DNA of 64,000 nucleotides from Candidatus Latescibacterota bacterium (GCA_965248265.1 CBDFJF010000002.1:3424001-3488000), one strand, 5' to 3'. Positions 2,379 to 39,438 are shown, counted from the first letter of the stretch. A program made the numbers and translations. The notes: a model not told the origin generated them from the letters alone.

Positions 2379-2625
2379 AATCAACGTGCGTGACCTCTAC
2401 GAGGTGAAGGCGCAGCGCAAAAAAGTCACCGACGACGTAGACGACATCGTGGTCCAGGTACCGCTGCTGACCATAGACCAGGTGACCCACGCCCACGACT
2501 GGCACGCCAAGCGGCTGCGGGAAGTGGACGCGGTGATTCAACAGGCGAACTGGGCCACAGACGTAGAGGTCGCAGACATGAGCGACTACGAGCCCCCACC
2601 CGAACTGCAGAAGAGGTCAAGATGA
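2308..2625 (+). CDS. DIP1984/DUF6847-like coiled-coil protein
   Basis: KLAEALLRRKELQQKV at N-terminus and LREVDAVIQQANW near C-terminus resemble this family; purine-rich RBS before ATG 2308. Confidence 0.6.
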   Translation: MQVKLAEALLRRKELQQKVKQLAEINVRDLYEVKAQRKKVTDDVDDIVVQVPLLTIDQVTHAHDWHAKRLREVDAVIQQANWATDVEVADMSDYEPPPELQKRSR

Positions 2626-3482
2626 GTCCGAAAACAACCGTCCGCTTAGGCATAGGCCTTGTCGGTGTGATGTTCGTGATGATCGTACTGGCTGCCAGCT
2701 TTGAAACCGTGAGTACCAACCACGTCGCTGTGGGCCTGCGCTTCGGCAAGGTAACCGGCGACGTGCTGGACGAAGGGCTACACCTGGTTAACCCGATTCT
2801 CGACTGGGACCACTTCAACTGCTTGGAGCAGGAAGTCACCTTCAAGGGCATCACGGTGCCCGCCGAGGATCAGATGAAGGCGACGATGGATGTCACGGTG
2901 AAGGGCAGGTTCATGCCCGCCCATGCCGTGGTGCAGCGTCGGGAAACCGGCACGCAGCAGCAGGTGATCGCCACGCACTTTCAGCCCATTGCACGCGGTG
3001 CCCTGCGCGAGGCGGGACGCTCCACGTCGAAGGTCGAGGAGTTCTACGAGGACTCCAAGGTTGAGGAGTACCAATCCAACGCCCTGGCCATCCTGCAGGA
3101 AGGGCTGTCTGCCAAGGGCTACGAGATCACCGACGTGATCGTGCGAGACGTGAGCCTGCCCGAAGTCATCACCGCTGCCATCACCGCCAAGAAACAGCGG
3201 GAACAGGAGGTTGAGAAACAGCGGGCTGAGCTGAGCCGCATCGAGCTGGTGGCCGAACAGAAGGTCAAGCAGGCCATCGCGGACCGTGATGCCGCCGTGG
3301 AGATAGCGGTGGCCATCAGGGTGACCGCCGAAGCCGAGGCTTACGCCATCGAGGTCAAGAAGGCTGAGCTAACCGACCAGTACATCTCGTTTAAACTGGC
3401 CGAGGCGTGGGACGGGGGACTGCCGAAGCTGATGGGTAGCGGCGTCGTGCCGTTTCTCGACCTCACCGCGATGACGCAGTAA
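2622..3482 (+). CDS. SPFH/prohibitin (band 7) membrane protein
   Basis: N-terminal TM helix, V..RFGKV...L.EGLH.VNP, DV.VRDV.LP..I..AI..K, AEAEA coiled coil, WDG.LP. Confidence 0.9.
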   Translation: MSPKTTVRLGIGLVGVMFVMIVLAASFETVSTNHVAVGLRFGKVTGDVLDEGLHLVNPILDWDHFNCLEQEVTFKGITVPAEDQMKATMDVTVKGRFMPAHAVVQRRETGTQQQVIATHFQPIARGALREAGRSTSKVEEFYEDSKVEEYQSNALAILQEGLSAKGYEITDVIVRDVSLPEVITAAITAKKQREQEVEKQRAELSRIELVAEQKVKQAIADRDAAVEIAVAIRVTAEAEAYAIEVKKAELTDQYISFKLAEAWDGGLPKLMGSGVVPFLDLTAMTQ

Positions 3483-3583
3483 TGCACCTGTTGCTGGTGG
3501 GGGTCGCCATCGGAATTGTCATCGGCCATCTGGTAACAGTGTACTGGCCCGACATAGTGCGCAAGGCCACCAAACGTAAATAG
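3482..3583 (+). CDS. 33-aa single-pass membrane peptide
   Basis: MHLLLVGVAIGIVIGHLVTVYWPDIVRKATKRK; ATG overlaps SPFH stop; below ORF-track cutoff. Confidence 0.55.
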   Translation: MHLLLVGVAIGIVIGHLVTVYWPDIVRKATKRK

Positions 3584-3601
3584 CGCGGGGTGCGCTAAAT
3601 A

Positions 3602-3921
3602 GGACGAGAAAGGGCGTAGGAAACGCATGAGGTTGGCCGCGTACCTCACCCAAACGCGAGAAGCATCCGGTTGCTTCGACTGCAATTATCGCAACGGTAG
3701 CTCACTGGTAGAGCATCAGCCCTGAGAGCTGAGTGTAGCGGGTTCAATTCCCGTCCACTGCATCCGCCTGTTAAGCGGGTATAGAGACACCCAGGATAGA
3801 CTGGGGCGAAGCCCGATTGACCGAATCGCGAACGGTGAGACATCCGAACTGACCGAATAGCCGCACATCCGACGCCCGAATGCGAGAAGCCCGACTAACC
3901 ACGTTTCCGACTTTCTCGTCC
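3602..3921 (+). ncRNA. Candidate large structured ncRNA with embedded tRNA-like domain
   Basis: GGACGAGAAAG (3602-12) pairs with CTTTCTCGTCC (3911-21); GGAAACG (3619-25) pairs with CGTTTCC (3902-08); internal hairpins, pseudoknot and CCGA repeats; no credible ORF. Confidence 0.6.
3691..3762 (+). tRNA. Atypical tRNA or tRNA-like element, anticodon TGA (Ser) but short variable loop
   Basis: D arm GCTC-ACTGGTA-GAGC, anticodon arm TCAGC-CCTGAGA-GCTGA, T arm GCGGG-TTCAATT-CCCGT; two acceptor-stem mismatches; no encoded CCA. Confidence 0.75.
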
Positions 3922-3941
3922 GACCATCCAGGAGAACCACG

Positions 3942-4355
3942 ATGATCTACACCACCGTCACATGGCCACGTGAACGCTGGCCCAACTTCACCTTCAACGA
4001 GATGGCCTGCACCCACTGCGGCGTGTGTGATGTGGACGAGCTGTTCATGGACACGCTGCAGCTGATCCGCAACGAGCTGAGCACCGCCATGCAGATCACC
4101 AGCGGCTACCGCTGCGCCGATCACCCTATAGAAGTCCTCAAGGCGAAGCCTGGGAGCCATGAGAAGGGTTGCGCCGTGGATGTGGCCTGTTGGGGGGCTC
4201 GCGCCTACCGACTCCTACAGGCCGCGTGCAAGGACGACAGGATGGCGGGTATTGGCATCCACCAGAGCCCCAAGGCCCCCAATGCCAAACGATTCCTGCA
4301 TCTGGATCAGCTGGTAGCCGACTATCGCCCGGCGCTGTGGAGCTACGACAAATGA
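3942..4355 (+). CDS. Peptidase M15 family (Zn D-Ala-D-Ala peptidase), endolysin-like
   Basis: NF...EMAC..CG, ITSGYRC..H, SH..G.AVD, FLHLD motifs; AGGAG RBS. Confidence 0.88.
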   Translation: MIYTTVTWPRERWPNFTFNEMACTHCGVCDVDELFMDTLQLIRNELSTAMQITSGYRCADHPIEVLKAKPGSHEKGCAVDVACWGARAYRLLQAACKDDRMAGIGIHQSPKAPNAKRFLHLDQLVADYRPALWSYDK

Positions 4356-4705
4356 CCAAAACCGAGGTGTGCGTGCTCATCGACGGGCTGTGGGTCAGCA
4401 AGGCTCACCGCGACGGACTGAAGTACAAAATCAAGACCCGCACCTTTACGCCATCAGATTTGGATGAATGGGGCGGACGGTTTAAACGGGCTCTCGACAA
4501 GCAGCAGGAGCTGGTGATGGCCCACGCCAGCGGGGCGGCCGACGCCCAGGAAGTGCAGGAGTTGTCCCTGGACTACAGCGGCATCGAGCTAAAAAAGAAG
4601 AAACGCATGGCTGCAGGCAGGCTACTGCGTCAGGTAATCAAGGAGCAAGCCGGGTTGACCATCCCCGCTGACCTATCCCGTTCTGCCGTGGAGCAATACG
4701 TATGA
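4352..4705 (+). CDS. Hypothetical phage protein
   Basis: ATGA overlap with the peptidase; start MTKTEV. Confidence 0.6.
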   Translation: MTKTEVCVLIDGLWVSKAHRDGLKYKIKTRTFTPSDLDEWGGRFKRALDKQQELVMAHASGAADAQEVQELSLDYSGIELKKKKRMAAGRLLRQVIKEQAGLTIPADLSRSAVEQYV

Positions 4706-38025: not shown

Positions 38026-39135
38026 TTACACGCTGGTTATTTGTTCGTCGAAGACCTTGAACTTCTTGGCAATGATGTCGTCTCGGGTGGTCATGTAGCG
38101 GCGGGTCATTTCAATCTTGGCGTGACCCAACAGCCGCTGCACCTCTTCCAGCTTCAGTCCCGACTCACACCAGCGGGTGGCCGCCGTGTGGCGCAGCATG
38201 TGAAAGTGCACGTGGCCGATGCCCGCCGCCTTGCCCGCCGTTTTGAGCGAGCGCTGGATGTTGATGTGGGGCAACGGCGGTAAGTCGCGCTGGTTGGAGA
38301 GGGCCAGCGCCGCCCGTTCGCGCAGCGCTTCGCGCACCCGGCTGGTCATGGGCACGTGGCGCTCGCGCCCGGTCTTGGTCCCCTTGCCATCCCAGGAGTC
38401 GTTGACCAGGATGCGGTTGCCCTCAAAATCTACCTTCTCCCAGGTCAAACTCATCAGCTCGCCGCGCCGCAAGCCGGTATCGACGGCCACCATGGCGATC
38501 AGGTGGGCATGGGGGCTGTCCTCGTTGCCTGCAAGCTGGGCCAACAGCTGGGCTGTTTGCTGTTCGGTCAGCGCCCGCGCCTCCACGTCCATGTAGTCGG
38601 GCTCGCGCTGCCGCTGCAGGCAGCGGGGGCCTGCCGGGTTGGTGCGGATGAGCTTTTTCTTATAACACCAGCCAAACAGGGCCGCCAAGCATGTTACCAT
38701 GGTATTGTAGGCCGAGGCGGACAGCTCCTGGTCTGGGTCTTTGAGGGGTTCCTGCTCATCCAACCAGTCCTGCAGGCGGGGGGTCGTCAACGAGCGCAGC
38801 TGCGTGGTGCCCAGCTGCGGCAGCAAGCGAGCGCTGAAGAAGTAGCGGTACGAACTCCAGGTGATGGGCCGCCACTGGTCGTACTCCTTCTCGAAGCGCA
38901 CCAGGGCTTGGGCCACGGTGATGGAGGATTCGCTGACAAACTCGCCCTTGTGCTCCAGCTCGTCGTTGATCTGGCGGGCCACGCGGGTGGCCCCGGTGAC
39001 ACTCATGCACTCGGTGTTGTGCTGGCGCTTGCGCCCGCCGTCGCGCCAGTGGGCCTGCCACACCCCCGTGCCCTTCGACTGCTTGAGGCGGACCCGGCCC
39101 ACACGGTGGGCTTCGGGTTGCTTATCCTGCCCCAT
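38026..39135 (-). CDS. int: Phage tyrosine integrase
   Basis: Arm-binding N-terminus, GLRRGEL, TKTG, HMLRH, LGH, TRRY catalytic residues; GGAGG RBS before ATG 39135; adjacent to tRNA. Confidence 0.95.
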   Translation of the reverse strand: MGQDKQPEAHRVGRVRLKQSKGTGVWQAHWRDGGRKRQHNTECMSVTGATRVARQINDELEHKGEFVSESSITVAQALVRFEKEYDQWRPITWSSYRYFFSARLLPQLGTTQLRSLTTPRLQDWLDEQEPLKDPDQELSASAYNTMVTCLAALFGWCYKKKLIRTNPAGPRCLQRQREPDYMDVEARALTEQQTAQLLAQLAGNEDSPHAHLIAMVAVDTGLRRGELMSLTWEKVDFEGNRILVNDSWDGKGTKTGRERHVPMTSRVREALRERAALALSNQRDLPPLPHINIQRSLKTAGKAAGIGHVHFHMLRHTAATRWCESGLKLEEVQRLLGHAKIEMTRRYMTTRDDIIAKKFKVFDEQITSV

Positions 39136-39363
39136 GATGTATGTTCCTCCTGTTGTGAAAAGCGACCCCGTTGGGGGCTCGCCGTTGACGCTAACACGAA
39201 TCAATATACGATGAAAAAAGCCCGAGCGCATCAAAAAAACTGCCGAATTGCTCCCGTTTCCACCGTGCGTCTCTCTCTGAGGGCCATTGCGCCAGGGCAT
39301 GAAGTGGCTATGGGGCAGGCAGGTGATAAGTGACTGTGTTTCATCTGGTTTACAGAGGTTGGA

Positions 39364-39438
39364 GCGGGAGTAGCTCAGGGGCAGAGCACGAGCTTCCCAA
39401 GCTTGATGTCGCGGGTTCGACTCCCGTCTCCCGCTCCA
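39364..39438 (+). tRNA. tRNA-Gly(CCC), probable prophage attachment site
   Basis: Canonical cloverleaf GCGGGAG...CTCCCGC-T-CCA, loop TT-CCC-AA. Confidence 0.97.

Follow-up and report, generated by a model that had tools for sequence, protein, structure and literature searches.

The prophage locus

The window, a stretch of 64,000 nucleotides from the genome of a Candidatus Latescibacterota bacterium (7.3 Mb in two contigs, 59.6% G+C, 92% complete), is occupied by prophage genes from position 1 to about 39,300. On the + strand lie the genes for an Erf-like annealing protein (680–1480), an SPFH/Band_7 protein (2622–3482) and a Peptidase_M15_3 endolysin-like protein (3942–4355, with its ATG at 3942); the window also codes for a terminase large subunit, a major head protein, a virion structural protein and a tail fibre. 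The integrase gene (38026–39300) adjoins a host tRNA-Gly gene, of which no att repeat of at least 14 nt was found within 120 kb on either side. The gene order around the region studied here is Erf, SPFH, a 33-aa membrane ORF, a tRNA, the M15 peptidase, an HTH protein (HTH_17) and a Gam-like protein, and every gene called between 43 and 6612 is on the + strand.

The 33-aa hydrophobic ORF (3482–3583, + strand) directly follows the SPFH gene, which sets the limits of the spacer on the + strand between this ORF and the M15 gene at 3584–3941 (358 bases). The ribosome-binding site of the M15 gene, AGGAG, is found at 3930–3934 (+ strand), seven bases 5' of the ATG. The minus-strand ORFs inside the spacer have a codon-position G+C of 0.55/0.55/0.63, compared with ~0.6/0.4/0.8 in real genes, and have no Pfam match. 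Consequently, the spacer was treated as non-coding.

Neither a sigma-70-type promoter nor a + strand intrinsic terminator (a GC-rich hairpin followed by a U run) was detected in 3300–4200, and no tandem repeats were present in 3500–4000. A short hairpin, AGCGC/GCGCT (3582–3596), spans the stop codon of the 33-aa ORF and is bordered by the direct repeat TAAATAG (3577–3583 and 3596–3602). It is terminator-like on the minus strand, where one such site compares with 0.7 expected in shuffles and is not significant. The composition of 3840–4020 resembles that of Rho-utilization sites, with a C/G ratio of 1.8–2.1 (about the 99th percentile of the window), and extends into the M15 gene.

An aberrant tRNA

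The spacer carries a class-I tRNA of 72 nt (3691–3762, + strand). The original prediction, which had seen here a cloverleaf inside an end-paired RNA, was right on this point, as both ARAGORN and Rfam call the sequence a tRNA. The match to RF00005 scores 53.8 bits against a cut-off of 29 and covers model positions 1–71 of 71. Rfam (release 15) was searched with the whole window at gathering thresholds, and 3400–4100 was compared with its 4227 families at E values up to 10. This comparison, by which the proposal of a new RNA was to be checked, identified solely tRNA in 3400–4100; the one match to another family was of chance level, on the minus strand, at 16 bits against a cut-off of 65.7. The tRNA is thus the sole element of the spacer recognized by the databases.

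The D and T arms of this tRNA are normal, and its variable loop is 5 nt long. The anticodon loop, CCUGAGA, contains the anticodon UGA followed by G37, and position 33 is C rather than U. The acceptor stem falls short of seven canonical pairs, the adjacent pairs 4:69 and 5:68 being A.C and C.A (A4.C69, C5.A68). The host has four tRNA-Ser genes of 88–92 nt, one of them with the anticodon UGA; at 72 nt, the spacer tRNA therefore does not possess the long arm typical of bacterial tRNA-Ser. This long variable arm is the main recognition feature for the bacterial seryl-tRNA synthetase (SerRS). The terminal CCA is not encoded in the spacer tRNA, whereas it is encoded in 50 of the 57 tRNAs that ARAGORN finds in the genome; a gene of the PolyA_pol/CCA-adding family is present in the host.

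Descent from a host tRNA was considered and rejected for want of a clear parent, since the best global alignments, to tRNA-Gly genes, have just 53–54 identical positions. The prophage uses the codon UCA mildly more than the host does (8.4 versus 6.1 per 1000 codons, from rough ORF sets).

Like other phage tRNA genes (RF00005), this one lies on the coding strand of a phage genome and scores above the Rfam threshold; it differs from them in combining UGA with a short variable arm, in the adjacent A.C mismatches and in the absence of an encoded CCA. Given its weak acceptor stem, its C33 and the lack of a long variable arm alongside UGA, the tRNA may be poorly charged or degenerating, or it may have been altered to escape a host nuclease that targets tRNAs. 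In the part of the literature that we consulted, phage tRNAs are proposed to carry changes in the anticodon loop that evade host anticodon nucleases, and mycobacterial VapC toxins are described as cutting tRNA-Ser(UGA) at the GA of the anticodon (PMC10264068). The loop of the spacer tRNA (C33, G37) likewise departs from the standard pattern, and nuclease evasion would be, by analogy, a possible frame for its interpretation (PMC10264068).

Pairing between leader and trailer

The original prediction rested above all on complementarity between the two ends of the spacer, and the sequences it pointed to are indeed there. The segment 3602–3612, GGACGAGAAAG, is the exact reverse complement of 3911–3921; these + strand arms make up a predicted outer helix that encloses the spacer with near symmetry, from 19 nt past the stop codon on the 5' side to 8 nt short of AGGAG. 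We folded the ensemble in three contexts (320, 358 and 579 nt) with a model that does not cover pseudoknots. The outer helix has a pair probability of ~1 in every context, up to 579 nt, with values of 0.81–1.0 for 10 of its 11 pairs.

The elements further inside fared less uniformly. An inner helix of 7 bp had been proposed between GGAAACG (3619–3625, + strand) and its partner at 3902–3908: the complementarity is real, and belongs to an inverted match of 10 nt (90%) between 3616–3625 and 3902–3911, but its pair probability is 0.01. Similarly, the letters of the proposed H-type pseudoknot are in place (TGAGGT 3628–3633 with ACCTCA 3643–3648, and CGCGT 3638–3642 with ACGCG 3654–3658), but both stems have a probability of 0.01, and stem 1 is likewise disfavoured in the ensemble when taken on its own. 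In place of the proposed inner helix and pseudoknot, the ensemble prefers a helix between 3612–3621 and 3868–3877 (both + strand; 10 nt, 90%), with probabilities of 0.77–0.99 for nine of its ten pairs. The outer helix and this preferred inner helix together leave the 5' strand 3602–3621 almost continuously paired: 19 of its 20 nt are paired in the minimum-free-energy fold, with two separated 3' segments. In the predicted fold, an insertion of 34 nt on the 3' strand interrupts the helix, and the rest of the leader pairs loosely onto the trailer.

The smaller hairpins described earlier could all be found. GAAGCA (3660–3665) and TGCTTC (3672–3677) are complementary, with an ensemble probability of 0.15. 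Right after the 3' end of the tRNA, ATCCGC (3762–3767) and GCGGGT (3775–3780) form a + strand hairpin (3762–3780) of 6 bp, one of them G.U, with a loop of 7 nt, and CCCAG (3790–3794) pairs with CUGGG (3801–3805, CTGGG in the DNA) in a second + strand hairpin (3790–3805). Both of these belong to the minimum-free-energy fold. The acceptor stem of the tRNA has a probability of 0.0 in the ensemble because of its two mismatches.

How unusual the end-to-end complement is depends on the measure. Exact inverted 11-mers spaced by 100–400 nt are common, with 789 in the 7.3-Mb genome, or 6.9 per 64 kb; the window itself contains 23 inverted pairs, of which six are exact 11-mers 150–400 nt apart (hand count). 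The composite of 11 and 7 bp with loops of up to 6 nt occurs four times in the genome against ~2–3 expected by our own arithmetic, so that it is rare per window without any genome-wide excess. As a control at tRNA loci, the 100 nt upstream were compared with the 170 nt downstream for each of the 57 tRNAs called by ARAGORN in the genome: at 11 nt, the exact complement described here exceeds all others, the next is 9 nt, and 55 of the 57 loci have 8 nt or fewer. By energy, the duplex between the 60-nt ends reaches –42.0 kcal/mol compared with –31.8 ± 7.3, a value equalled or beaten by 1704 of 20000 random genome windows, and the best duplex of leader and trailer –66.6 compared with –58.7 ± 10.2 (1487 of 6857 random windows equal or better). 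The end pairing is thus rare by the count of exact matches and ordinary by energy, 8.5–22% of random windows doing at least equally well.

The 320 nt as a whole fold better than their shuffles on the + strand (z = –2.56, 1 of 100 shuffles as good) and also on the minus strand (z = –3.26, again 1 of 100). This fold-energy signal takes in the tRNA and is not strand-specific. The pseudoknot pattern of 6 + 5 bp is seen once in the spacer; of 300 shuffles, 2% show it, and the window contains it 13 times (both strands, 128 kb).

RNase III processing stalks occur in rRNA operons and in phage early mRNAs. By analogy with the stalks of rRNA operons, the helix of 3602–3621 with 3868–3877 and 3912–3921 might form in an early polycistronic RNA, where a double-strand-specific RNase such as RNase III would free a ~320-nt precursor, from which the tRNA would be matured, and also disconnect the upstream from the downstream mRNA. 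The spacer shares with such stalks a long-range pairing around a stable RNA in a longer transcript, and the host has a gene of the RNase III family. The position of the helix, past a stop codon and ahead of a ribosome-binding site, its probabilities (~1 for the outer and ~0.98 for the preferred inner helix, with some 19 paired positions on a continuous strand of 20 nt) and the fact that none of the other 57 tRNA loci compared has so long a flank complement are consistent with such a role. The spacer differs from known stalks in that the pairing is predicted, is interrupted by the 34-nt insertion on the 3' strand, flanks a single tRNA and is unexceptional in energy, at a level reached by 8.5–22% of random genome windows. 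In addition, the arms 3602–3626 and 3903–3921 lie outside the alignments of at least 80% likeness with contigs of the same sample described below, and to our knowledge RNase III stalks around single tRNA genes form no described class. We therefore consider a processing stalk unlikely.

According to the original prediction, the spacer encodes a distinct RNA of ~320 nt, end-paired and with a tRNA-like module, which would act as a scaffold or as a decoy. In the form weighed here, this RNA would be stable and discrete and would have no part in decoding; it might, for instance, engage a defence nuclease that targets tRNAs or a protein that binds them. C33, the two acceptor mismatches, UGA without a long arm and the missing CCA all argue against normal decoding; the uncommon pseudoknot pattern, the z score of –2.56 and the near-equal spacing of leader and trailer blocks in one relative (183 compared with 180 nt) also fit such an RNA. 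These points are set against the ordinary energy controls, a minus strand that folds at least equally well (z = –3.26), terminal arms that fall outside the conserved blocks, and the value of 0.01 for the 7-bp helix and for both pseudoknot stems, where the model cannot score pseudoknots as such but disfavours stem 1 taken singly as well.

Comparison with known RNAs also speaks against a scaffold or decoy, given that Rfam matches the tRNA alone. On paper, the closing stem and tRNA-like domain resemble YrlA/Y RNAs, which are bound by Ro60/Rsr; the spacer differs in having a full cloverleaf with an anticodon arm, no Rfam match to that family and no partner gene, as a search for TROVE/Ro60 (PF05731) found none in the 92%-complete genome, the control search having matched 2 of 14 named control genomes. 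The prophage location and the neighbouring tRNA recall GOLLD and ROOL (10.1101/2024.12.08.627333), RNAs of several hundred nucleotides with a conserved multi-helix structure. In the spacer, two short blocks are conserved, in relatives from the same sample alone, and there is no Rfam match to either family. Membership of GOLLD, ROOL or Y RNA, as these are currently modelled, is excluded by the absence of Rfam matches. Other candidate phage structured RNAs, some of them tRNA-like, rest on covariation across many IMG/VR contigs, as far as the consulted portion of that work goes (PMC10690425). The spacer is like them in being an intergenic phage element that overlaps an ARAGORN tRNA call; it differs in having no relative in IMG/VR, a separation made without their full motif list (PMC10690425). 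Taken together, we regard the scaffold or decoy RNA as improbable.

Conserved blocks and interpretation of the spacer

Relatives of the flanks came from a single source. Contigs of four runs, belonging to one sample of one study that is possibly the source of the window, were aligned to 3000–4600 at a likeness of at least 80%. Besides the identical source contig, a first contig type matches 3627–3674 (48 nt, 5 differences). A second matches both 3631–3684 (54 nt, 9 differences) and 3865–3902 (38 nt, 5 differences), its two matches being separated by 183 non-aligning letters compared with 180 nt in the window. The third has its match in the body of the tRNA (43 nt, 8 differences). The outermost positions matched in the flanks are thus 3627 or 3631 on the 5' side and 3902 on the 3' side, lying inside the terminal arms, and no match to a neighbouring gene at 80% or more was detected in these related contigs. 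Two short internal blocks are hence better kept than their surroundings, the tRNA included. The 5' block (3627–3684, + strand) comprises the candidate pseudoknot (3628–3658) and the GAAGCA/UGCUUC hairpin (3660–3677), and the 3' block (3865–3902, + strand), which includes the 3' arm of the preferred inner helix, comprises one copy of a 16-nt repeat and the 5' half of a GAAGC/GUUUC hairpin (3883–3909).

Reading the unaligned ends of the first contig type by eye, we saw 15 of 30 positions agree upstream of 3627 in an ungapped register, with 7 of 11 agreeing in the outer arm, where each of the four changes is a transition, and 2 of 7 agreeing in the inner arm that had first been proposed. Downstream of 3674, an apparent start of a different tRNA follows ~20 nt on. 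These readings rest on loose ends of 30 letters from one sample and are leads only.

Searches elsewhere did not extend this set. Collecting homologues from phage contigs, the second check attached to the original prediction, yielded no homologue of the flanks, nor did any other collection searched, whether phage, viral, metagenome or genome. No match to 3400–4100 was obtained among 50,697 phage records (blastn, distant mode). The spacer is present as a single copy in its own genome. Matches were found in 3 of 61 related genomes and, at E values up to 0.01, in 37 of 168 genomes of the phylum; outside its own genome they were confined to the tRNA body (query 114–171 in the related genomes). Pattern scans of viral contigs for the anticodon arm and for a tRNA frame with this loop gave no hit.

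The SPFH protein itself had no match in viral contigs. As a query, an alignment of 22 SPFH proteins recovered 110 relatives in metagenome contigs and 202 in genome contigs (80 of the 110 and 80 of the 202 were kept) and one in viral contigs; the nearest SPFH protein in a large collection of proteins shares 67% identity. Within the order, an SPFH protein is present in 34 of 76 genomes, in each case of host type at 36–40% identity. No tRNA lies downstream of six phage-type SPFH orthologues (44–49% identity) and no M15 gene stands beside SPFH orthologues, so the order SPFH–tRNA–M15 is not kept at 44–49% identity. ARAGORN found one tRNA at eight SPFH loci, a tRNA-His ~2 kb upstream of the gene. 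Against 197 other loci, blastn with the spacer gave matches to the tRNA body and short chance matches alone. The M15 protein has relatives at five viral loci (40–43% identity), none of them with a tRNA, and within the class it occurs in 1 of 132 genomes, its own.

Both conserved blocks contain a copy of the 16-nt direct repeat (3649–3664 and 3875–3890, + strand; 14 of 16 positions identical). Its exact consensus has just these two sites in the window and in the genome, and a GAAGC/GYUUC hairpin and GACU come after each copy. In viral contigs, the repeat picked up 57 stretches, none of which reaches past the seed (best 27 nt). The trailer also holds the CCGA-repeat tract noted in the original prediction. 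This CCGA-rich region (3807–3925, + strand) includes nine CCGA within 3813–3923, with TGACCGAAT, ACATCCGA and GAAGCCCGA each occurring twice; nine per 120 nt is the genome maximum on either strand, the highest density elsewhere being seven.

A MITE with terminal inverted repeats was considered for the inverted ends. It is argued against by the single copy of the element in the genome, and no target-site duplication was visible by eye at 3602/3921.

The repeats could also mean that the tRNA and its flanks constitute an exchangeable DNA module, bounded by the 16-nt repeats and/or the inverted ends, that moves between related phages by recombination, the repeats being recombination scars or protein-binding sites and not part of an RNA structure. 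A direct repeat of 14/16 with no other mismatch-free site flanks the tRNA; one contig type keeps both flanks around a middle of 183 letters (unaligned at 80%) in place of the 180 nt, while another runs, by eye, into the start of a different tRNA. The CCGA density is what clustered binding sites would give, and the SPFH orthologues at 44–49% identity have no tRNA downstream, the lone tRNA at eight loci lying ~2 kb upstream. However, the 183-nt middle may be merely a more diverged homologue, the element is single-copy without a target-site duplication seen by eye at its inverted ends, the adjacent genes include neither a recombinase nor a homing endonuclease, and no empty site was seen. Such a module is, in our view, improbable.

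Alternatively, the blocks might be conserved as the starts of small proteins, encoded by a 32-aa ORF (3627–3725, + strand; ATG at 3627, with AGGA at 3618–3621, 5 nt upstream) and a 21-aa ORF (3880–3945, + strand), the stop of which overlaps the start codon of the M15 gene (ATGA). These ORFs exist, the match of one relative starts exactly at ATG 3627 with the upstream GGA kept by eye, and the 16-nt repeat is read, by hand, in the same frame in both. Against this, the 32-aa ORF enters the tRNA by 35 nt and stops at the anticodon, its GC3 of ~0.66 and GC2 of ~0.5 (hand count) depart from the 0.8 and 0.4 of real genes, ATG 3880 has no ribosome-binding site, and ORFs this short are expected by chance. 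Small proteins thus appear highly improbable as the reason for conservation.

The best explanation, in which we place about as much belief as doubt, is that the spacer is a phage tRNA gene with a leader and a trailer, carrying an aberrant tRNA, in the early operon of a prophage. The prophage context, the ordinary pairing energies, the internal position of the conserved parts and the recognition of tRNA alone by Rfam speak for it. What stands against it is the outer helix (11 nt against the next-best 9, probability ~1, 19 of 20 nt paired), its near-symmetric bracketing of the spacer, the z score of –2.56 and the occurrence of an uncommon pseudoknot pattern in a conserved block.

Because the tRNA lies on the coding strand inside an operon, its transcription within a longer RNA is presumed, and the 'tRNA precursor' part of the original prediction is presumably true in a nearly trivial sense. 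The tRNA would be transcribed within a polycistronic early RNA and probably excised by host enzymes, with RNase P producing the 5' end and trimming the 3' end; as no CCA is encoded, the CCA-adding enzyme of the host would then finish it. The blocks 3627–3684 and 3865–3902 can be regarded as conserved cis elements, for which expression or processing are the likeliest roles. The outer complement of 11 bp has most probably arisen by chance or, at the most, serves as an accessory stem in processing; no new RNA family is defined by it. A distinct closed RNA of ~320 nt is unproven, and the tests run lean against it.

A bolder interpretation would treat the two blocks as a reusable RNA frame that related phages of the environment retain around interchangeable tRNA or tRNA-like inserts, and hence as a new class of tRNA-carrying phage RNA of ~320 nt. 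The leader and trailer would then close a particle, for example, a decoy or a protected delivery form of a nuclease-resistant tRNA. We see little prospect of this being so.

In statistical terms, the spacer stands out for its exact 11-mer, its density of CCGA, its conserved blocks in the interior and the defects of its tRNA; it is unremarkable in the overall pairing energy of leader and trailer, in the 7-bp inner helix and in the pseudoknot as seen in the folding ensemble. If it is simply a phage tRNA gene, the locus adds one more aberrant prophage tRNA, whose class-I body with a UGA anticodon and C33 would be a candidate case of the shaping of phage tRNAs by tRNA-cleaving defence systems, an idea under current discussion. 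Should the flanks instead turn out to form a conserved RNA frame for tRNAs that can be exchanged, they would represent a new mode of tRNA packaging or processing in phages.

Conserved blocks and a direct repeat on either side of the tRNA gene

The aberrant prophage tRNA gene (3691-3762, plus strand) lies in a non-coding spacer (3584-3941) between a 33-aa ORF and an M15 peptidase gene, and is flanked by a leader block (3627-3684) and a trailer block (3865-3902) that are matched at 83-90% identity in other contigs from four runs of one sample, possibly the source of the window. The neighbouring genes have no match at 80% identity or more in those same-sample contigs that carry the blocks. In one such contig, which has both blocks, they enclose a non-aligning middle of 183 letters, as against 180 nt in the window.

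The tRNA gene is also bracketed by a 16-nt direct repeat, the two copies of which (3649-3664 and 3875-3890) are identical at 14 of 16 positions. Downstream of each copy stands a GAAGC/GYUUC hairpin followed by GACU. A search of the whole genome revealed no mismatch-free occurrence of the 16-nt repeat elsewhere.

Integrase site and tRNA complement of the genome

The integrase gene (38026-39300) adjoins a host tRNA-Gly(ccc) gene, the pair occupying 38026-39438. Neither this tRNA nor its 40-nt downstream flank has a repeat of at least 14 nt within 120 kb on either side; consequently, the other end of the prophage was not located. Among the 57 tRNA genes called by ARAGORN in the genome, seven have no encoded CCA. 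The calls outside the window include one tRNA of 79 nt whose anticodon spans four bases (ttct, Glu|Arg), as well as an unusually long tRNA-Pro(agg) of 87 nt and tRNA-Ala(ggc) of 91 nt.

Reading frames and transcription signals around the spacer

A 21-aa ORF (3880-3945), devoid of its own ribosome-binding site, ends in a TGA that overlaps the M15 peptidase start codon ATG (as ATGA); this ORF may represent a coupling leader or a chance occurrence. Further downstream, the listed 178-aa ORF (4169-4705) displays an atypical codon-position G+C content (0.66/0.49/0.65). Since the beginning of this ORF lies within the M15 gene (3942-4355), the real gene represented by the ORF probably starts later than listed.

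From the last part of the spacer into the beginning of the M15 gene, the plus strand (3840-4020) is C-rich and G-poor (C/G 1.8-2.1, approximately the 99th percentile of the window), a composition similar to that of a Rho-loading site. On the minus strand, immediately to the left of the spacer, a hairpin followed by a T-rich tail (3581-3597) resembles a terminator. It would be compatible with termination of an antisense transcript crossing the spacer, but shuffled sequence yields about as many such sites (one seen, 0.7 expected).

The CCGA-rich tract

The region 3807-3925 contains nine CCGA motifs per 120 nt, a density unequalled on either strand of the 7.3-Mb genome; the maximum in the rest of the genome is seven and the genome mean 0.77. 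Three 8-9-mers, TGACCGAAT, ACATCCGA and GAAGCCCGA, each occur twice within it. This tract could constitute a cluster of protein binding sites, acting at the level of either DNA or RNA.
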